64,000 bases of DNA from Candidatus Bathyarchaeota archaeon (GTDB lineage: Archaea > Thermoproteota > Bathyarchaeia > Bathyarchaeales > Bathycorpusculaceae), in assembly GCA_963782525.1 (NCBI GenBank), contig CAWAKC010000001.1, forward strand, positions 224,001 to 288,000, read 5' to 3'. Under the pieces are notes generated by a model that saw only the letters and a program-made list of their open reading frames with translations, ran no database searches and had not been told where the DNA came from. The stretch's first letter is position 1. Every line of letters starts with the position of its first letter. Position numbers and translations under genes: made by a program. Shown in pieces: positions 2,738-10,020 of this stretch.

Positions 2738-2889
2738 CAAACCAACTTCGTAATTTAAAAAACAAAAATTATCCTCTATTTTTTAATTATTTAATACAAT
2801 TTTTTTGAGCAAAAGAGGAATAGAACTTAGCGGTTGTTGTTTCATCCATGCAACAACATCGCCTTATATCAAATTGTATCGTTAGAGGG

Positions 2890-3025
2890 TTTAGAAGCAA
2901 ACTACTAAGAGCCAAGTTGGGCGGGTCTGGCGACTAACAAAGGAGGAGGCACCTGCGACTATTTTTGCCCTCACCGATGTTAGCCCATGGCTAAATTCGC
3001 TTAATTAACTACTTTTCCCCCTTAA
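2890..3025 (+). ncRNA. candidate structured small RNA
   Basis: GC-rich island downstream of TATA-like CTTATATC (2863-2870); nested stems CTAACA/TGTTAG and GAG-GA-GGCA/TGCC-CTC; no convincing ORF; family not recognised. Confidence 0.3.
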
Positions 3026-3154
3026 ACCAATTTGACAGATTTTTGATGTGTAGAAATGGTTAGGAAGGATTTGTAAAATTAAAGAATGCCCAACAGGCTC
3101 ATCACTTTTTCAAGTAATTGTCTGGTTGCCAACTGTAAAGGTTTAATCGGAAAC

Positions 3155-3170
3155 CGTAAACTTTTTATTT
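3155..3170 (+). promoter_or_regulatory. BRE/TATA-like promoter of ilvBN with a long (~180 nt) leader
   Basis: CGTAAA followed by CTTTTTATTT about 200 nt upstream of the ilvB start. Confidence 0.5.
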
Positions 3171-3212
3171 GCACAGCTAGTTCTTTTTAAAGAACGTGGA
3201 GTTTAAAGAGGC

Positions 3213-3372
3213 ATGAACATGAGGGATCGTCACCTCAATAGTTGGGATCGTCGGGTACAACTTTTCTAATTCACCCAGATTACCCTCTAAATATACCACT
3301 AAAAAATTCTCGCAAACAATAATCCTAGACGACAGTATAGTTGTTAAATCAAACCATAGGAGACTGAATTGA
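3213..3372 (+). other. putative Ile/Val-rich leader frame of ilvB (ATG out of frame by 1 nt as read)
   Basis: Frame 3223-3372 reads GIVTSIVGIVG...TIILDDSIVVKSNHRRLN* and stops at the ilvB start; ATGs at 3213/3219 join it if one G of AGGG is removed. Confidence 0.35.
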
Positions 3373-5081
3373 AAATGGCAAAAATGTCTGGTGCACAAGC
3401 ACTCTTAGAATCCCTTGAACATCAAAAAGTTGAAGTTATCTTCGGCATATTAGGCGGCGCAATCCTCCCAGTATACGATGCGTTATGCGGCAACAAGAAA
3501 ATCCGCCACATCCTCGCACGACATGAGCAGTGTGCAGCACATGAAGCTGAAGGTTACGCAAGAGCCAGCGGAAGAGCAGGCGTATGCATGGCAACCAGCG
3601 GCCCGGGAGCCACCAACCTAGTGACAGGAATCGCTAACGCCTACATGGATTCCTCGCCGATAATTGCTTTAACTGGACAAATTCCAGCCTCAGGCACCAA
3701 CACCAGCTACATGATTGGCAGAGATGCCTTCCAAGAAGCAGACATCATCGGCATCACCACCGCCATCACCAAATACAGTTACCAGCCACGAACCGTTACT
3801 GAAATTCCCCTCATGGTTAACAATGCCTTCTACATAGCAACAACAGGCAGACCTGGACCCGTCCTAATTGATCTACCAAAGAACGTCCAATCAGGAATGG
3901 CCGAAGTCGAATTTACGAATAAAATTGATTTACGCGGCTACAAACTACCGACCGAACCGAATCCAGCAAGAATCAGCGAAGCTTCAGACCTGTTAGCCAA
4001 AGCTCAATGCCCGATCATTCTGGCAGGCGGCGGAGTCATAACTGCAGGTGCATCCGATGAACTGGTTAAAATGTCAGATTTACTGATGGCGCCAGTCGCT
4101 ACTACCTTCATGGGAAAAGGAGCATTCCCAGAAAATAACCCATTATCACTCGGAAGCATCGGCATGCATGGTAATCCAGCAGCTAACAAACTGATGGGTG
4201 AAGCAGACGTATTACTGGCTGTCGGAACAAGGTTTTCTGACCGCGCAACCGCAAACCTAGACAGCTTTGCCCCAAACGCTAAAAAGATTCACATAGACAT
4301 CGACGACGCAGAAATCAACAAGAACATCGAAATTGACGTTCCCATCGTTGCAGACGCTAAAGTCGCGATGAAGATGCTTTACACTGCAGTCTCACAGAAA
4401 TTGCGGAAGGGCGAAGGCAAAGCATGGACGAAACGAGTGAAAGAAGCTAAAGAACAGCTAAGTCCCCTTCTAAAAGAGTTGCCTAAAGACTTAATGCCTA
4501 AAGCGTTGCTAGTGGAGCTAAGGAAACTGTTGCAGGAAAACGCCATAGTCACTACCGAAGTGGGGCAAAACCAAATGTGGTCTGCGCTATACTTCCAAGC
4601 ATTAAAACCACGCACATTCATCAGTTCAGGCGGACTTGGAACCATGGGATTTGGTTTCCCAGCAGCAATAGGCGCAAAAGTCGCGTGCCCAGACCGACCA
4701 GTCGTGGACGTCGCAGGCGACGGCAGCTTCATAATGTCCGAGCAAGAACTAGCGTGCTCAGTAACGGAGAACATCCCAGTCACAGTCATCGTGCTAAACA
4801 ACTCAATCCTTGGCATGGTGGCGCAGTGGCAACGTATGCTCTACAAACGTCGCTACATGGCTGTTCACTTAGGCAAAACTCCAGACTTCGTTAAGTTGGC
4901 AGAAGCTTACGGAGCCCAAGGCATACGTGCAACGTCAATCGAGGAGTTCCACAAAGCTGTTAAGACAGCACTTACTAGTAAAGTAACAACGGTAATCGAC
5001 GTGCCCATTGGCTCAGAAACCGATGTGGTTCCCTTTGTGCCTCCAGGCTGCGGTTTACCCCAACAGATAGGTGACTACTAA
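3369..5081 (+). CDS. ilvB: acetolactate synthase large subunit (start probably ATG 3375)
   Basis: RHEQ, ATSGPGATN, DAFQE, SGGLGTMGFGFPAAIGA and TPP-binding GDGSF...NN motifs. Confidence 0.96.
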   Translation: MKMAKMSGAQALLESLEHQKVEVIFGILGGAILPVYDALCGNKKIRHILARHEQCAAHEAEGYARASGRAGVCMATSGPGATNLVTGIANAYMDSSPIIALTGQIPASGTNTSYMIGRDAFQEADIIGITTAITKYSYQPRTVTEIPLMVNNAFYIATTGRPGPVLIDLPKNVQSGMAEVEFTNKIDLRGYKLPTEPNPARISEASDLLAKAQCPIILAGGGVITAGASDELVKMSDLLMAPVATTFMGKGAFPENNPLSLGSIGMHGNPAANKLMGEADVLLAVGTRFSDRATANLDSFAPNAKKIHIDIDDAEINKNIEIDVPIVADAKVAMKMLYTAVSQKLRKGEGKAWTKRVKEAKEQLSPLLKELPKDLMPKALLVELRKLLQENAIVTTEVGQNQMWSALYFQALKPRTFISSGGLGTMGFGFPAAIGAKVACPDRPVVDVAGDGSFIMSEQELACSVTENIPVTVIVLNNSILGMVAQWQRMLYKRRYMAVHLGKTPDFVKLAEAYGAQGIRATSIEEFHKAVKTALTSKVTTVIDVPIGSETDVVPFVPPGCGLPQQIGDY

Positions 5082-5593
5082 TGGAAACAGGAAAAACCAA
5101 AGTAATCAGCATCCTAGTTGAAAACAAACCAGGTGTACTCCATACCATCGCAAACCTGTTCCGACGAAGAAACTTTAACATCGAATCCATCACGGTTGGC
5201 CCCACACAACAAGAGAACATATCACGCATGACCATAACAATCAAAGGAGACGAAAAAACAACCGAACAAGTTGTCAAACAAGTCGCCAAACAAATCGACG
5301 TCCTCAAAGTCGACGAGCTCTCACAAGGCAACTTCGTAATCCGCGAACTATCTTTGATAAAAGTTAACGTGCCAACCTCAAAAGAACGCAGCGACATAAT
5401 CAACTGTGTAGAAGTCTTCCGGGGCAGAATAATTGATGTCTCAACTGACAGCGTAACAGTTGAAATCACCGGAACCCCCGACAAAATCGACGCATTCCTC
5501 AACCTCATGAAAACCTACGGAGTCATAGAACTCGCCAGAACAGGCATAACAGCCCTAGCCAGAGGCGCAAAATCGATAAGAATCGACGAATAA
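5081..5593 (+). CDS. ilvN: acetolactate synthase small regulatory subunit
   Basis: ACT domain ENKPGVL...RRNFNIESITV, C-terminal ELARTGITALARG; overlaps the ilvB stop. Confidence 0.96.
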   Translation: METGKTKVISILVENKPGVLHTIANLFRRRNFNIESITVGPTQQENISRMTITIKGDEKTTEQVVKQVAKQIDVLKVDELSQGNFVIRELSLIKVNVPTSKERSDIINCVEVFRGRIIDVSTDSVTVEITGTPDKIDAFLNLMKTYGVIELARTGITALARGAKSIRIDE

Positions 5594-5689
5594 ACAGCAT
5601 TGACATAGCGGAAATACTTAATTGCTTGTTCTTTAAAATTCCCATTTATCTTAGGCATATTTAGGTTAATTCAAGGTAAAGGAAAGACT

Positions 5690-6958
5690 ATGAACATAAC
5701 AGAAAAAATCTTAGCCAAGGCTTCAGGAAAGAAAGCCGTACATCCAGGCGAAATCGTCGACGCAAACGTCGACATGATCATGATACATGACTTAACTGGA
5801 CCCTTAGCGGTTGAAGCCTTCAAAAAAATAGGCTCACAAAAAGTTTGGAATAACAAAAAAGTAGTGGTAATTCTGGACCATCAGGTTCCAGCAGAATCAG
5901 TAAAAGCAGCAGAACTTCACAAAACCATGAGGCAATTCGCCAAAGACCAAAACGTCACCTTCTACGACGTAGGCAGAGGCGGAATATGCCACCAAGTTAT
6001 GCCAGAAAAAGGACATGTAACACCAGGCAACGTAATCGTTGGCGCAGACAGCCACACATGCACCTACGGAGCATTCGGCGCATTCGCCACAGGTATCGGC
6101 TCAACCGAAGCAGCCGCGGTTATGGCTACAGGAAAAATCTGGTTCAAAGTACCCCCAACAATCAAAGTTAACGTTAAAGGCACCTTCAAAAAGTACGTTA
6201 CCCCAAAAGACCTAATCCTAAACGTAATCGGCAATTTAGGTGTAGATGGCGCCATATACAAAGCAGCGGAATTCACAGGTCCAACTATCCAAAAAATGAG
6301 CATAGCAGGGCGTATGACCGTTTGCAACATGGCAGTTGAGATGGGCGCCAAAAACGGCATAATCGCACCCGACGAAACAACAAGCAAATTCTTAGAAAGC
6401 AGAGTCAAAAACTTACCAGACTTCAAAGCCTTGCAAAGTGACAAAGACGCAGTTTACGAGCGCACAGTTAAATTTGATGTTTCTACGATGGAGCCACAGG
6501 TAGCTTGCCCATCCTCAGTTGACAACGTGAAACCCATCGCGGAAGTTGGAAACGTGCCAATCGAACAGGCATTCATCGGTTCCTGCACAAACGGCAGAAT
6601 CGAAGACTTACGCTTAGCTGCAGAAGTCATCAAAGGCAAACGCGTCAAAGACGGCGTACGAGCCTTAGTTATTCCTGCTTCCCAAGAAGTCTACCGTCAA
6701 GCCTTAAACGAGGGCTTAATGGAAATCTTCACCGACGCAGGCGCCATAGTGTGCGGTTCCGCATGTGGACCATGCTTAGGCGGCCACATCGGCTTACTGG
6801 CAGCGGGCGAATCATGCGTTAGCAGCAGCAACCGCAACTTCATCGGCAGAATGGGCAGCACCCAAGCAAACGTCTACTTAGCATCACCCGCAACCGTAGC
6901 GGCATCAGCAATCACAGGCAAATTAACAGACCCCACAAAGCTGGAGACAAAACCATGA
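5690..6958 (+). CDS. leuC: 3-isopropylmalate dehydratase large subunit (homoaconitase family)
   Basis: GADSHTCTYGA, FIGSCTNGR, CGPCLG and SNRNFIGRMG motifs; leu operon context. Confidence 0.92.
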   Translation: MNITEKILAKASGKKAVHPGEIVDANVDMIMIHDLTGPLAVEAFKKIGSQKVWNNKKVVVILDHQVPAESVKAAELHKTMRQFAKDQNVTFYDVGRGGICHQVMPEKGHVTPGNVIVGADSHTCTYGAFGAFATGIGSTEAAAVMATGKIWFKVPPTIKVNVKGTFKKYVTPKDLILNVIGNLGVDGAIYKAAEFTGPTIQKMSIAGRMTVCNMAVEMGAKNGIIAPDETTSKFLESRVKNLPDFKALQSDKDAVYERTVKFDVSTMEPQVACPSSVDNVKPIAEVGNVPIEQAFIGSCTNGRIEDLRLAAEVIKGKRVKDGVRALVIPASQEVYRQALNEGLMEIFTDAGAIVCGSACGPCLGGHIGLLAAGESCVSSSNRNFIGRMGSTQANVYLASPATVAASAITGKLTDPTKLETKP

Positions 6959-7455
6959 ACAGCAAAATCAAAGCGCCAGCCATAAAATTCGGCAACAACA
7001 TAGACACAGACGTCATCCTACCAGGCAAATACCTAATCTTAGTTGACCCATGCGAATTAGCAAAACACGCATTGGAAAGCTTAGACACCGAATTCGTCAA
7101 CAAAGCCAAAAAAGGCGTCATATTAGTTGGCGGCAAAAACTTCGGCTGCGGCTCAAGCAGAGAGCAGGCGCCCTTAGCGTTAAAGTATTCAGGCGTCAAA
7201 TGCGTCATCGCCGAATCGTTCGCCCGCATCTTCTTCCGCAACGCAATAAACATTGGTTTACCCGTAATCGAATGCAAAGGCATATCAAGCGCGGTGGAAA
7301 CAGGCGACGAATTAGTCGTTGACTTTGAGACGGGCAAAATCGAAAACGCTTCAAACGGCAAAAAATTCCAAGTCGAAAAACTGCCACCATTCATCCTAGA
7401 AATCTTAGCTGATGACGGATTAATCGAGAACTTAAAAGGAAAGATGAAAAAATGA
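6955..7455 (+). CDS. leuD: 3-isopropylmalate dehydratase small subunit
   Basis: NIDTDVILP, NFGCGSSREQA, SFARIFFRNAINIG motifs. Confidence 0.93.
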   Translation: MNSKIKAPAIKFGNNIDTDVILPGKYLILVDPCELAKHALESLDTEFVNKAKKGVILVGGKNFGCGSSREQAPLALKYSGVKCVIAESFARIFFRNAINIGLPVIECKGISSAVETGDELVVDFETGKIENASNGKKFQVEKLPPFILEILADDGLIENLKGKMKK

Positions 7456-8489
7456 CAGAATACAAAATATCCTTAATTCCCGGCGATGGCATCGGGCCAG
7501 AATTAACCGAAGCCACCCTAAAAGTCTTAGATGCAGTTCAGAAAAAATTCGGCGTTAAACTGCAGATCATTGAAGCTGAAGCAGGCGACGTTGCCCTTGA
7601 AAGAGTAGGCGCCGCATTGCCAGCAGATACCATTGAGAAAGTTAAGAACTCCCACGCTTGCCTAAAAGGACCCGTAGGCGAATCAGCAGCAGACGTCATC
7701 GTTAAATTGCGCGTCATGTTTGACCTTTACGCTAACCTACGCCCATTAAAGGCATACCCCAACGTTCCAGTCGCCAGACCAGACATCGACATGCTCTTTG
7801 TCCGCGAAAACACTGAAGACGTCTACAAAGGCTTAGAATTCACAATCGGCGCAGACACCACCTTGTGCCTACGCGTTATCACACGAGGAAACTGCGAACG
7901 CATCGCTCACAAAGCCTTCCAAATGGCACGCCTACGCAACGGCAAAAAGAAAGTCACAGCCATTCACAAAGCCAACGTTATGCGTGTAACCGACGGTTTA
8001 TTTCGTGACGTCTGCCGCGAAGTCAGCAAAGGCTATCCCGACATCGCGTTTAACGAACTCTACGTTGACGCCGCATCCATGCGACTAATTAAAGAACCAG
8101 AAATATTCGATGTCTTCTGCACTTGCAACATGTTCGGCGACATCCTCAGCGATGAAGCCGCACAGCAAATCGGAGGCTTAGGCATGGCTCCAGGCGCAAA
8201 CGTCGGCGAAAACTTTGGATTATTCGAACCCATCCATGGCTCCGCACCAAACAGAGCAGGAAAACATACCGCCAACCCAATCTCCATGATACTTTCAGCG
8301 AAAATGATGCTGGAGTGGCTGGGAGAAAAATACGGTGACAAGAAATGCTTACAAGCAGGCGCAGCCATAGAGAACGGTGTAGTTTACGCTTTGCGTAACC
8401 GTCAATCTGTTCCAGACTGCGGCGGCACCACCACAACCGTGGGCATGGCAGAAGCTATCGCTGCAGCCCTAACTGTGAAAAGTGGCTGA
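7452..8489 (+). CDS. leuB: 3-isopropylmalate dehydrogenase
   Basis: PGDGIGPE, RENTED, NMFGDILSD, FEPIHGSAP motifs; ATGA overlap with leuD. Confidence 0.88.
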   Translation: MTEYKISLIPGDGIGPELTEATLKVLDAVQKKFGVKLQIIEAEAGDVALERVGAALPADTIEKVKNSHACLKGPVGESAADVIVKLRVMFDLYANLRPLKAYPNVPVARPDIDMLFVRENTEDVYKGLEFTIGADTTLCLRVITRGNCERIAHKAFQMARLRNGKKKVTAIHKANVMRVTDGLFRDVCREVSKGYPDIAFNELYVDAASMRLIKEPEIFDVFCTCNMFGDILSDEAAQQIGGLGMAPGANVGENFGLFEPIHGSAPNRAGKHTANPISMILSAKMMLEWLGEKYGDKKCLQAGAAIENGVVYALRNRQSVPDCGGTTTTVGMAEAIAAALTVKSG

Positions 8490-10020
8490 AAGCATGACCA
8501 ACAAAACCTCAAAAAGCATCCGAATTTTTGACACAACCTTAAGAGACGGGGAACAAACCCCCGGAGTTTCTTTAACTGCAGACGATAAGATTGAGATAGC
8601 AGTCCAACTCAGCAAACTAGGCGTAGACGTTATTGAGGCGGGTTTTCCGAGTTCTTCTGATGGCGAAAAAAAAGTCGTCAAAGATATTGCCAACTTGGGT
8701 TTGACCTCAGAAATCTGTAGTTTATCTCGGGCAACGAGAGGAGACATTGACGCAGCAATAGCTTGTGACGTTGATTTAGTTCACGTTTTCATACCAACCT
8801 CACCAGTCCAGATGAAGTATGCAGTTAATTTGACTCCCGAACAGGTATTGGCTTCCACAGTTGATTCGGTTTCTTACGTGAAGAAGCATGGTGTAAAATG
8901 TGAGTTTTCGCCGATGGATGCCACACGTTCCGAGATGCCCTTCTTAAAACAGGTTTGTAAAGCCGCACAGGATGCAGGCATGGATAGCCTAAATGTACCT
9001 GACACCGTCGGCATCATGATTCCAAAAACCACAATAAAACTCATTGAAGAATTAAAAACCGTAGTCACCGTGCCTATAAGCACCCATTGTCATGACGACT
9101 TTGGTTTAGCTGTCGCAAACAGTCTAGCAGCGGTCGAAGCTGGCGCAGCCCAAGTGCATGTCGCCGTCAACGGCTTAGGTGAACGGGCAGGCAACGCGTC
9201 GCTAGAAGAAGTCGTGATGGCGCTGCACATTATTTACAAGTACAAAACAAACGTCAACACCCGTTTACTCTACAGCACATCGCGAATGGTTGCGTCCTTA
9301 ACTGGCATTACGGTGCAAGCTAACAAGGCAATCGTTGGCGAAAACGCCTTTGCCCACGAATCAGGCATCCACACACGCGGTGTAACAGAGAAACCGTTAA
9401 CTTTCGAACCAATAAACCCCGAATTAGTCGGCAGAACAAGAAAACTTGTCGCAGGCAAATTAGCTGGAACCCGAGGAATAAAAGCGGAACTTGAAGAAAT
9501 CGGCATCCACCCAACCGAAGAGCAACTCAAAGAAATCGTTCAACGCGTCAAAGATTTAGGCGACAAAGGCAAGATGGTCACTGATGCCGACTTGATTGCG
9601 TTGACTTCTGCTGTGATGGGTGAGGTGCTCGGTGAAGAAAAAATCATTGACTTATGCGACATGGCAGTCGTCACAGGCATCAAAGTCATTCCAACCGCTT
9701 CTGTACGCTTAATTTTAAATGGCAAAGAATACGTTGCCGCCGAAACAGGCGTGGGACCAGTAGACGCTGTTTTGAAGGCAATTCAGAAGTTGACCAGCAG
9801 CATAGAAAACATCCGCCTAAGCGAATACCGACTCGAAGCTATCACAGGCGGTTCAAACGCGGTGGCTGAAGTCGTTATAAAAGTCGAGGATGAAAAAGGC
9901 AACATCGTCAGCGCCCGAGCAGCCCGAGAAGACATCGTTATGGCATCTGTTGAAGCAATGATAAATGGCATAAACAAACTCTTGCTAAAGAACCATCAAA
10001 AGCAGGGAAACAAAAAGTGA
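8482..10020 (+). CDS. leuA: 2-isopropylmalate synthase (LeuA/CimA family)
   Basis: DTTLRDGEQTPG, HCHDDFGLA, GERAGNA, AFAHESGIH and a C-terminal regulatory domain; citramalate synthase activity not excluded. Confidence 0.85.
   Translation: MAESMTNKTSKSIRIFDTTLRDGEQTPGVSLTADDKIEIAVQLSKLGVDVIEAGFPSSSDGEKKVVKDIANLGLTSEICSLSRATRGDIDAAIACDVDLVHVFIPTSPVQMKYAVNLTPEQVLASTVDSVSYVKKHGVKCEFSPMDATRSEMPFLKQVCKAAQDAGMDSLNVPDTVGIMIPKTTIKLIEELKTVVTVPISTHCHDDFGLAVANSLAAVEAGAAQVHVAVNGLGERAGNASLEEVVMALHIIYKYKTNVNTRLLYSTSRMVASLTGITVQANKAIVGENAFAHESGIHTRGVTEKPLTFEPINPELVGRTRKLVAGKLAGTRGIKAELEEIGIHPTEEQLKEIVQRVKDLGDKGKMVTDADLIALTSAVMGEVLGEEKIIDLCDMAVVTGIKVIPTASVRLILNGKEYVAAETGVGPVDAVLKAIQKLTSSIENIRLSEYRLEAITGGSNAVAEVVIKVEDEKGNIVSARAAREDIVMASVEAMINGINKLLLKNHQKQGNKK

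Follow-up and report, generated by a model that had tools for sequence, protein, structure and literature searches.

The window analysed here is a stretch of 64,000 nt from Candidatus Bathyarchaeota archaeon (assembly GCA_963782525.1, contig CAWAKC010000001.1). On its forward strand lies an operon of ilvB, ilvN, leuC, leuD, leuB and leuA, whose ORFs abut or overlap except at ilvN and leuC, which are 96 nt apart. Two overlapping leader reading frames precede ilvB, downstream of the promoter, and the features of this region are the following (the frame of ATG 3219 is called frame 0).

3153 to 3171, + strand: BRE/TATA promoter block ACCGTAAAC TTTTTATT TG, near-invariant in alignments of 20 and of 102 sequences
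3206 to 3211, + strand: Shine-Dalgarno (SD)-like AAGAGG, 7 nt ahead of ATG 3219
3219 to 3269, + strand: frame-0 mini-ORF of ATG, 15 codons and TAA (MRDRHLNSWDRRVQLF, then stop), the sole leader ORF with a start codon
3222 to 3225, + strand: proposed +1 shift site AGG_G, a rare frame-0 AGG overlapped by the +1 Gly codon GGG
3223 to 3372, + strand: +1-frame leader ORF, 49 sense codons and TGA, without an in-frame start
3226 to 3252, + strand: Ile/Val codon cluster ATC GTC .. ATA GTT .. ATC GTC, within the repeat GGGATCGTC
3358 to 3377, + strand: ilvB ribosome-binding site AGGAG (3358-3362), leader TGA (3370-3372) and ilvB ATG (3375-3377)
3375 to 10020, + strand: the putatively controlled operon ilvB, ilvN, leuC, leuD, leuB, leuA (Pfam assignments)

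The long frame (3223-3369) reads GIVTSIVGIVGYNFSNSPRLPSKYTTKKFSQTIILDDSIVVKSNHRRLN and is followed by TGA at 3370-3372, 2 nt ahead of the ilvB ATG at 3375; TTG 3369 and the leader stop overlap as TTGA, and the SD of ilvB itself lies 12 nt upstream of the ilvB ATG. No ATG, GTG or TTG codon is present in this frame, and the codon preceding its first codon, GGG, is TGA. Both ATG 3213 and ATG 3219 instead yield MNMRDRHLNSWDRRVQLF, closed by TAA at 3267-3269, and ATG 3219, which opens a 16-codon ORF, is one base out of register with the Ile/Val frame. The three Ile-Val pairs of the +1 frame are due in part to a direct repeat of GGGATCGTC (3223-3231 and 3244-3252). The first-pass annotation of this DNA had described 3223-3369 as an open, Ile/Val-rich frame with three Ile-Val pairs and a TGA 2 nt before the ilvB ATG, all of which is correct, and its TATA-like box (3161-3170) proved to be part of the near-invariant BRE/TATA block.

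In most leaders of the genus, TTTT(T)AT begins 52-60 nt ahead of the leader ATG, and from the usual archaeal spacing a transcription start near 3191-3195 is predicted for the window. The RNA-library contigs covering this region are sequences of relatives, 85-99% alike, in which DNA carry-over is possible. Contig cover was nil at 3050-3196 in four RNA libraries, which is no more than a weak hint, and began at 3215-3244 in three runs and at 3366 in X17, which cannot place the 5' end. Over 3218-3263, no difference or indel is listed in the covering contigs, which come from three RNA libraries and share the same limits of origin and carry-over. One X16 contig skips 3258-3373, and the letters in between are not known.

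A DNA match was obtained in 109 of the 120 genus genomes searched (G000 included), and 102 distinct leaders were analysed. From the ATG to +141 (47 codons), the +1 frame was stop-free in 97 of the 102 leaders, frame 0 in one and the remaining sense frame in four, a contrast that goes beyond chance. The antisense frames were stop-free over the same span in 36, 0 and 0 leaders, the 36 belonging to the frame that shares wobble positions with the +1 frame; an antisense ORF at 3398..3177 (73 aa, TTG) was rejected as a shadow frame, stop-free in 36/102 only. Tree parsimony distributed the substitutions in the overlap over +1 codon positions 3, 2 and 1 as 57, 18 and 9, and beyond the overlap pN/pS was 0.62 in the +1 frame versus 1.00 and 0.89 in the shifted frames. 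The Ile codons of the +1 frame interchange synonymously (ATC, ATT, ATA), and in all 102 leaders 4-6 of the first 10 +1 codons are Ile or Val, compared with a joint share of about 14% of codons in the long ORFs of this genome. Residues are conserved over the full length, as GIVTSIAGIVGY..F..PR..PS[EK]...KFS...F.D[DE]S....RR.N. The +1 ORF is 46-53 codons long in 96/102 leaders, and indels preserve the frame, so that the distance from leader ATG to ilvB ATG ranges from 144 to 158 nt. Where the ilvB ATG could be located (97 leaders), the end of the leader stop falls between -8 and +6 nt of it in 91, the commonest gaps being +2 (36 leaders) and -4, an ATGA overlap (23 leaders), in the forms TGAnnATG or ATGA. 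The early +1 stops in 5/102 leaders are 1-nt changes, some of them adjoining A or T runs. Judged from these alignments, the +1 frame is evidently translated, a real, conserved, coding-type leader ORF before ilvB.

Frame 0 is conserved in another way. An SD-like 4-mer is present at -14 to -5 of the leader ATG in 102/102 leaders (before the crude gene starts of this genome, the spacing of such 4-mers peaks at 6-11 nt), and the frame-0 ORF has 16 codons, with the stop at codon 17, in 95/102. Its residues change radically among leaders, for example R>C, W>R and D>N. The frame-0 tail is VLIL in 39/102 leaders and VQLF in this window, with two branched-chain codons only. GGGTA (3253-3257) does not vary in the 102 leaders, the +1 wobble G at 3255 included, and the +1 codon preceding the frame-0 stop always ends in T, though its residue varies (S, F, H, Y, T, C). 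The junction ATGAGGG is identical in 102/102 leaders, and throughout the set the +1 ORF has no in-frame ATG, GTG or TTG at its 5' end and is preceded by TGA. Read-through from an in-frame start further upstream was rejected, as 71/102 leaders have no ATG, GTG or TTG between the previous stop and this TGA, and in 41/102 the codon ahead of the TGA is a stop as well. With the offset invariant in all 102 leaders, what is needed is a +1 frameshift, the second of the two options offered in the first-pass annotation, or another non-standard entry.

The arrangement extends beyond the genus. Among 59 ilvB upstream regions of the class from outside the genus, 25 share the plan of an SD, an ATG or GTG start, an AGG or GGG codon and a long +1 ORF, and the +1 residue after Gly in these 25 is Ile in 22, Val in two and Arg in one. 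The alternation of ATG with GTG in other families is what a true start codon would show. Gly-Ile-Val/Ala is kept class-wide with varying codons, whereas the frame-0 residues vary, and the +1 tail diverges freely between families. The frame-0 ORFs of other families end in F/I/L/V codons (MGYRFILS, VGYCFI and MRDRFL, each followed by the stop), and the repeat GGGATCGTC is missing from the other families with the two-frame plan. Within this genome, our two-frame detector matched only two of the 987 crude gene starts, ilvB being one of the two, and none of the eight RTGAGGG pattern matches was convincing as a further two-frame leader.

Ribosome-read leader peptides are textbook regulators in bacteria. 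The present leader resembles those of E. coli ilvL/ivbL and the Corynebacterium ilvBNC uORF (PMC10272879, PMC11857589) in that an ORF enriched in codons of the pathway lies between promoter and ilvB and would be read by ribosomes ahead of the first enzyme gene. Unlike those bacterial leaders, it has no in-frame start, its 49 codons end on the ilvB start and not before a terminator, no terminator/antiterminator hairpins were found, and it belongs to an archaeon. The RNAalifold consensus for the 102 leaders was weak, at -11 kcal/mol with 13 pairs and no compensatory change, and its only helices pair the invariant GAGG with CCUC or CCUCU, an invariance that makes them uninformative. In the whole window, Rfam 15 gave no match at the gathering threshold and ARAGORN no tRNA or tmRNA. 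The genus leaders contain no conserved terminator after the leader, and the ORF extends to the ilvB start. So a translational link rather than attenuation is indicated, and attenuation by competing hairpins, to which the first-pass annotation had pointed, is not supported. Of the pairings named there, GUUGUU is confined to the closest relatives. The helix of UCGUC (3227-3231) with GACGA (3328-3332) is kept in 91% of cells, but its 13 double-changed cells fall into one clade plus one sequence, so that no more than about two of the double changes are independent. Pairing is worse for the second UCGUC copy, which shows 18 C·A cells.

The proposed shift site joins two uncommon codons. AGG, among the rarest codons of this genome, is used 4.3 times per 1000 codons (11% of Arg codons) and GGG, which is the frame-0 shift codon in other families, 7.0 times per 1000, and from this usage both would be slow to decode. 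Genes for tRNA-Arg(CCU), which has an intron, and tRNA-Gly(CCC) are present, so a missing tRNA for AGG was ruled out. As read from the sequence, an initiator tRNA moving from AUG to UGA would keep no pairing, and a slip of Arg-tRNA(CCU) from AGG onto GGG would leave it with one G-U and two G-C pairs. A primer-like pattern did not find the 3' end of the 16S rRNA.

Several known +1 sites invite comparison, as they appear in excerpts of PMC5009743. Ty1 and ABP140 use CUU_AGG_C, where a slow AGG meets competition from a +1 Gly codon; Ty3 uses GCG_AGU_U, where the shift occurs without re-pairing; and glass-sponge mitochondria shift at rare UGG_A or CGG_A before GGA (PMC5009743). Our leader shares with these sites a conserved, rare AGG-type codon overlapped by a +1 Gly codon, an early frame-0 stop nearby and a long, conserved, startless +1 ORF. 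It differs from the sites in those excerpts in that the shift would occur at codon two, while the P site is occupied by the initiator tRNA, for which re-pairing is impossible, in that the landing codon GGG is itself rare, and in that the putative product would be a leader peptide and not a fusion protein. In the ermC leader, ketolide-induced frameshifting carries ribosomes to the ermC start (PMC5009743), and the leader proposed here is alike in that a frameshift would bypass the leader stop and bring translation to the start of the regulated gene. In ermCL, according to the same excerpts, an antibiotic sitting in the exit tunnel acts as the trigger and an SD-sequestering hairpin is unfolded as a result; the present leader showed no conserved hairpin, and its presumed signal is the supply of aminoacyl-tRNA. 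As with prfB (RF2) and antizyme, how often a +1 shift occurs would presumably report how much of a decoding factor or metabolite is available, with feedback on its synthesis; those shifts lie at a stop codon within the regulated gene (excerpts of PMC5009743), and this one would lie in an upstream leader with amino-acid codons beside the site.

The reading we prefer, to which we give an even chance, is that the ilvBN-leuCDBA operon has a translated two-frame leader that is entered in the +1 frame at AGG_G and gauges Ile and Val. Ribosomes would bind the SD-like AAGAGG and initiate at ATG 3219. Those staying in frame 0 would make a 16-residue peptide and terminate at 3267-3269. Where AGG, the rare second codon, is overlapped by GGG, some of the ribosomes would shift one base forward, in one of two ways: an incoming Gly-tRNA decodes the out-of-frame GGG (the Ty3 proposal), or the Arg-tRNA on AGG re-pairs on GGG. 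Ile and Val codons come next in the +1 frame, where they account for five to six of the first ten, and progress would then need charged Ile- and Val-tRNA, which is how we infer the leader to gauge their supply. Ribosomes that get through would translate some 48 codons before terminating on the ilvB ribosome-binding site, with 2 nt left to the ATG. The leader stop lies within a few nt of the ilvB start, the geometry of stop-start coupling, and termination on this site would physically tie leader translation to ilvB initiation.

The sign of the leader effect on ilvB has to be argued from this geometry. Stop-start overlap can give positive coupling, as in overlapping archaeal gene pairs. If it did so here, stalling at Ile/Val codons would turn ilvB off under shortage, which is the wrong direction and speaks against our preferred reading. 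A repressive effect was therefore chosen: with plentiful Ile and Val, steady leader traffic would occupy the ilvB site and lower independent initiation, and under shortage, stalling or a return to frame 0 would free it. Other observations also weigh against the preferred reading. The initiator tRNA has no pairing to offer at UGA; the landing codon GGG is rare itself, unlike the abundant +1 tRNA in Ty1; frame 0 looks purposeful too, with its fixed stop (95/102) and VLIL tail (39/102), which fits a sensor in frame 0, as discussed below; and ilvB has its own SD, no other RTGAGGG two-frame leader was found in this genome, and 5/102 leaders have early +1 stops.

A possible though unlikely variant is that the choice of frame itself senses the charging of Ile-tRNA at [AG]GG_NAU_H, class-wide and sometimes in two tandem units. 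The P-site tRNA may sit there in either register; a wobble-read NAU would lock frame 0, charged Ile-tRNA on AUH would pull the ribosome to +1, and the fraction reaching ilvB through the long frame would report Ile-tRNA charging.

Frame 0 could also be the sensor, with a switch at hungry codons, and we regard this as rather unlikely. In this case the sensor would be MRDRHLNSWDRR, then Val, in relatives mostly Leu-Ile-Leu, and the stop; slow decoding would allow a late +1 slip at CGG_GUA_C or at CUU_AUU / CUU_UGA, and the slip would bypass the frame-0 stop, the ribosome would run in +1 to the ilvB start, and coupling would turn ilvB on, by a logic like that of prfB and the ermC leader. The sign is then right with ordinary positive coupling. 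The fixed stop at codon 17, the VLIL tails and the unvarying GGGTA agree with such a sensor, as do the F/I/L/V endings of the frame-0 ORFs in other families, and the consensus tail CTT ATT CTT TGA offers CUU_N sites like those of Ty1 and prfB (site types in excerpts of PMC5009743). However, +1 coding selection begins at the first codons, upstream of the late shift sites, and this strongest of the signals is left unexplained: the 57/18/9 periodicity spans the whole overlap, the Ile changes are synonymous and Gly-Ile-Val/Ala is class-wide. Moreover, the VQLF tail of the window offers this sensor only two branched-chain codons.

It is improbable that there is no frameshift at all and that the +1 ORF starts at a near-cognate AUC 3226 or AUA 3238, with ATG 3219 belonging to a separate overlapping mini-ORF. 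In bacteria, uORFs that overlap and start separately are common, and AUH follows the Gly codon in nearly all lineages. But AUC 3226 lies 14 nt after the upstream GAGG and 1 nt after the internal one, both distances being outside the enriched spacing of 6-11 nt; it would face competition from a perfectly placed ATG 7 nt upstream, and some leaders have GTC or GTT in its place. No role would be left, either, for the invariable [AG]GG overlap.

Just as improbable, in our estimate, is an independently acting small protein encoded by the +1 ORF, for example a hydrophobic-headed micro-protein co-expressed with acetolactate synthase. The full-length conservation of residues and the pN/pS below 1 beyond the overlap would suit a protein, but a value of 0.62 means weak constraint, families differ freely in the tail, and part of the conservation coincides with the ilvB SD (RR is AGG AGA). 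What is shared class-wide is the ORF position and the Gly-Ile/Val head and not a sequence of fold size, and such a protein would still require the same non-standard entry.

We consider it very unlikely that the element is untranslated, with the GGGATCGTC repeats as regulator sites (e.g., for the product of the winged-helix gene at 2129-2737) or as structured RNA, and the open frame incidental. The two 9-nt repeats are 21 nt apart, which equals two helical turns, nucleotide conservation of the overlap is very strong, and the UCGUC/GACGA helix is widely kept, with its 13 double changes. Against this, the frame stays open for about 100 nt past the repeats despite about 30% divergence and indels, substitutions follow a three-base periodicity, the ORF ends at the ilvB start, and the repeat is missing from other two-frame families; the RNA side of the argument meets the lack of an Rfam match, the RNAalifold consensus without compensatory pairs and the origin of the double changes in one clade and one sequence. 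An assembly or sequencing error hiding a true leader MNMRIVTS... in frame with the ATG, the 1-nt correction (deletion of one G) first offered for this frame, suits only the single-genome reading and is practically negligible and the correction refuted, since ATGAGGG occurs in 102/102 independent assemblies, other families have the same offset, and the RNA-library contigs show no difference over 3218-3263.

The locus is an unusually well-supported archaeal case of a leader peptide, resting on over 100 genomes, on a coding signature and on a geometry that is fixed relative to ilvB. Its twist is that the presumed sensor frame is startless, the only access to it being a conserved start that is offset by one base; this looks like an amino-acid gauge of an unreported kind. 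Our literature search (subscription journals not covered) found nothing on archaeal amino-acid operons preceded by leader peptides or by regulatory frameshifting. Should ribosomes enter by a programmed +1 frameshift, the site would join the very few that have been proposed for cellular +1 recoding in archaea. It would also be a regulatory leader frameshift of a sort known, in the excerpts of PMC5009743, from antibiotic-induced ermC, and would provide a compact, portable part (about 180 nt) with which to study how archaeal ribosomes keep or lose frame. If the choice of frame is itself the sensor, a programmed frameshift gauged by aminoacyl-tRNA would control a biosynthetic operon across an archaeal class. 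Gene callers are blind to a startless ORF, so such elements would be systematically absent from annotation.

Leaders of the ordinary kind were also observed. A crude scan for single-amino-acid leaders, insensitive enough to miss the aro leader described next, gave an R6-run and a T4-run candidate on contig C8, both of which lie inside longer ORFs and were rejected. The aro operon of this window has an in-frame Tyr/Phe leader, and other families of the class have ordinary in-frame leaders with Ile/Leu/Val runs before ilvB, followed by a hairpin and a T-run. These leaders bear out the first-pass suggestion of a lineage-wide leader-peptide system.

The startless Ile/Val-rich frame at 3223-3369 (+1 frame) lies directly before ilvB, and Pfam and ORF analysis placed the following genes of the ilv and leu loci in the window; an aro-operon leader discussed below is added.

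36-1664, ilvD
2129-2737, winged-helix gene (DUF7343)
between the winged-helix gene and ilvB, spacer of 637 nt
3375-5081, ilvB
5081-5593, ilvN
5690-10020, leuC, leuD, leuB and leuA
22677-22591, minus strand, in-frame Tyr/Phe leader of the aro operon, 28 codons, MLNAKNKINITASLFPSFDYYFYYYHFP and stop

Every sequence statement of the first-pass annotation was re-read from the window and found correct. Positions 3153-3171 hold a promoter-like block of the archaeal BRE/TATA form. The +1 frame is open over 49 codons, contains no ATG, GTG or TTG, and ends with TGA 3370-3372, 2 nt before ATG 3375; the codon preceding its first GGG is also a TGA, made by ATGA. ATG 3213 and ATG 3219 open another frame (frame 0) that reads MNMRDRHLNSWDRRVQLF and stops, and the Ile-Val pairs stem in part from a direct repeat of 9 nt (GGGATCGTC, copies at 3223 and 3244). 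In the window's genome ilvB might start two codons earlier, at TTG 3369, which shares the ilvB frame and forms TTGA with the leader stop; this TTG is unconserved in the genus, and many relatives have CTG.

The region 3150-3420 had DNA matches in 23 of 24 other genus genomes and in 108 of 119 in a wider draw, with 70-97% identity, and such conservation is unusual for a spacer. No DNA-level match was found outside the genus, except one short match over the ilvB start. Leaders were extracted from 109 loci and gave 102 distinct sequences, with seven matching genus genomes left out (G107 and G068, full-length; G132, G074, G064, G060 and G084, partial). The invariant or near-invariant blocks were the BRE/TATA, AAGAGG 7 nt before ATG 3219, and ATGAGGG, while the first ATG, 3213, was unconserved. 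The first-pass annotation had required either deletion of one G or a +1 frameshift to read the Ile/Val frame. ATGAGGG was the same in 102/102 assemblies, and among RNA-library contigs aligned to 3050-3650, which come from relatives and may include DNA carry-over, three of four libraries covered 3218-3263 and no difference or indel was listed there. The one-G deletion is thus refuted, the offset is a conserved property, and the +1 requirement is real.

Across the genus, the +1 frame evolves as coding sequence does, which upholds the proposed Ile/Val leader frame. Over 141 nt from the ATG it was stop-free in 97/102 leaders, the other sense frames in 1/102 and 4/102, the antisense frame whose wobble positions coincide with its own (a 73-aa ORF, 3398..3177, in the window) in 36/102, and the remaining antisense frames in 0/102. 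The leader ATG and the ilvB ATG stood 144 to 158 nt apart, yet the frame was retained, and the +1 ORF had 46-53 codons in 96/102 leaders. Early +1 stops in 5 leaders were due to point changes or to indels of one base, two of which lie beside A runs. Parsimony on a tree built from the flanks placed 57, 18 and 9 changes of the overlap (nt 4-39) on +1 codon positions 3, 2 and 1, respectively; Ile codons of the +1 frame alternated between ATC, ATT and ATA, and the same substitutions were radical in frame 0 (R>C, S>R, W>R, D>N, R>W). Downstream of the overlap, pN/pS from 38 independent pairs was 0.62 in the +1 frame and 1.00 and 0.89 in the shifted frames, which points to a constraint that is real but weak, as a leader would show. 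The +1 consensus peptide was GIVTSIAGIVGY.F..SPR.PS[EK]...[EK]KFS...F.D[DE]S....RR.N, and its RR corresponds to the ilvB SD, AGG AGA. One of the five leaders with early +1 stops is L031, the ilvB upstream region of G102, a 66% complete genome of the genus. There, two indels of one base each break the conserved peptide up into three frames and join frame 0 to ilvB; this is either an assembly error or a decayed leader.

Frame 0 was a 16-codon ORF in 95/102 leaders, and an SD-like 4-mer preceded the leader ATG in 102/102. The +1 codon that gives the T of the frame-0 stop was always T-ending, though it encoded S, F, H, Y, T or C, and T-ending codons make up just 16-47% of these codon families in the genome, which means that the position of the frame-0 stop is selected. 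The last four frame-0 residues were V-L-I-L in 39/102 leaders and V-Q-L-F in the window. Two C-rich blocks, CACCTC (3231-3236) and CCCTCT (3283-3288), are complementary to the leader SD/start region (AGAGG, GAGGG) and could close the leader ribosome-binding site; both are invariant among leaders.

We then took the ilvB upstream DNA of 64 further genomes of the class; in 59 of them the ilvB start could be located and was preceded by 200 nt or more. A two-frame detector (SD-like motif, then ATG/GTG; AGG/GGG within frame-0 codons 2-6; short frame-0 ORF; +1 ORF of 35 codons or more with its end -36 to +15 from the ilvB start) was positive in 25/59 class regions outside the genus, and in 2/987 crude gene starts of the window's genome, namely ilvB itself and the leuB/leuA junction. 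The variants have different sequences but a common plan. One variant, A/GTG AGG GAT.. (frame 0 M/V-R-D.., +1 G-I-V/A/F..), occurs in the window's family and two neighbouring families, and another, A/GTG GGG TAT YGC TTT.. (frame 0 M-G-Y-R/C-F-I.., +1 G-I-A/V-L..), in four other families; a few genomes have AGG at codon 3 or 4. The +1 codon right after the Gly codon was Ile in 22/25, Val in 2/25 and Arg in 1/25. Six regions (L158, L161, L162, L172, L173, L174) carry a tandem duplicate of the unit SD, ATG GGG TAT YGC TTT.., in which the stop of the first frame-0 ORF abuts the second ATG directly and a single long +1 ORF spans both units and reaches ilvB.

Other families without the two-frame plan have in-frame ilvB leaders ending ..VVVIVQ, ..VVVIII, ..LIVIVILI or ..VVVSEVLVLTVL before the stop, with a hairpin and/or a T-run downstream. 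In eight upstream regions (L119, L121, L123, L128, L132, L135, L137, L118) the in-frame leader ORFs have Ile/Leu/Val-run ends, most are followed by a strong hairpin, and L132 and L137 have a T5-T6 run 8 nt past the leader stop; from their sequences they look like bacterial-type attenuators in archaea. ilvB leader ORFs thus occur widely in the class and come in two types or more, one being the startless +1 frame. The Tyr/Phe leader mentioned in the first-pass annotation is the in-frame aro leader, which stands after a BRE/TATA-like block and is followed by a hairpin (22590-22553, minus strand, 11-bp stem, T6 run in the loop); its operon runs from an aspartokinase-like gene to chorismate synthase, and the aro genes farther along the window include archaeal DHQS-II and ADH-synthase-type enzymes. 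Together with both ilvB leader types, it bears out the suggestion that leader peptides are lineage-wide.

Frame entry and the sign of the output are what we infer from the leader. Common to the two-frame leaders is a start codon with AGG/GGG directly after it or only a few codons on, which overlaps a Gly codon, and then Ile/Val. Few codons of the genome are rarer than AGG (4.3/1000) and GGG (7.0/1000), and genes for tRNA-Arg(CCU) and tRNA-Gly(CCC) are present. According to excerpts of PMC5009743, a slow AGG competes with a +1 Gly codon at the Ty1 and ABP140 site CUU_AGG_C, re-pairing is impossible at the Ty3 site, and +1 shifts in sponge mitochondria occur at rare UGG_A or CGG_A before GGA; the A/GTG + AGG/GGG + Gly element resembles these sites as excerpted. 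Re-pairing of the initiator tRNA is impossible because AUG would have to become UGA, so two routes remain: an out-of-frame Gly-tRNA would bind at the first elongation step, or, one cycle later, the Arg-tRNA would slip from AGG to GGG. A late +1 shift near the frame-0 stop accounts for the frame-0 features and yields the intuitive sign, but we consider it improbable, as it leaves the coding selection on the first codons of the +1 frame unexplained. That the +1 frame begins at a near-cognate start of its own is very improbable: the sole leader ribosome-binding site is that of ATG 3219 (SD spacing 7 nt, within the 6-11 nt range enriched before the genome's genes). Upstream in the +1 frame, 71/102 leaders have no ATG, GTG or TTG from the preceding stop up to the TGA, and a second stop lies one codon farther upstream in 41/102.

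At the other end, the ilvB ATG could be placed in 97 leaders, and in 91 of these the +1 stop ended -8 to +6 nt from it. A gap of +2 was commonest (36 leaders), followed by the -4 of an ATGA overlap (23). Translationally coupled cistrons have this geometry. An AGGAG 12 nt upstream of the ilvB ATG gives ilvB a ribosome-binding motif of its own. RNAalifold detected neither a conserved terminator nor a covarying fold in the leaders (0 compensatory pairs), and Rfam had no match in the window; the sole hint of structure was a helix of UCGUC 3227-3231 with GACGA 3328-3332, C-G in 81 leaders and U-A in 13, the latter being one clade plus one sequence. Of the earlier attenuation-leader reading, hairpin attenuation is therefore left without support, whereas the leader frame, the +1 need and the lineage-wide leader peptides stand, and the output is more likely translational, via ribosomes that reach the ilvB start.

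Three features speak for the element as a gauge by which ribosomes would read the supply of branched-chain amino acids for the operon: where it lies, its Ile/Val head, and its in-frame Ile/Leu/Val counterparts in sister families. With positive coupling, stalling at Ile/Val codons would cut ilvB expression under shortage, which is why we weakly favour that, in plenty, early-shifted leader ribosomes would occupy the ilvB site, and that the site would be freed on stalling or return to frame 0. Control of the frame choice at [AG]GG_NAU_H by charged Ile-tRNA is conceivable, though doubtful. In the literature searched we found no paper that deals with leader peptides or regulatory frameshifting upstream of amino-acid operons in archaea.

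Upstream of the ilvB promoter, a spacer stretch of about 200 nt (2823-3034), for which Rfam gave no match, is repeated at several further sites of the genome and in many genus genomes. The copies had 69-76% identity, with at most 5 extra per genome, and may represent a dispersed repeat or a small-RNA family.
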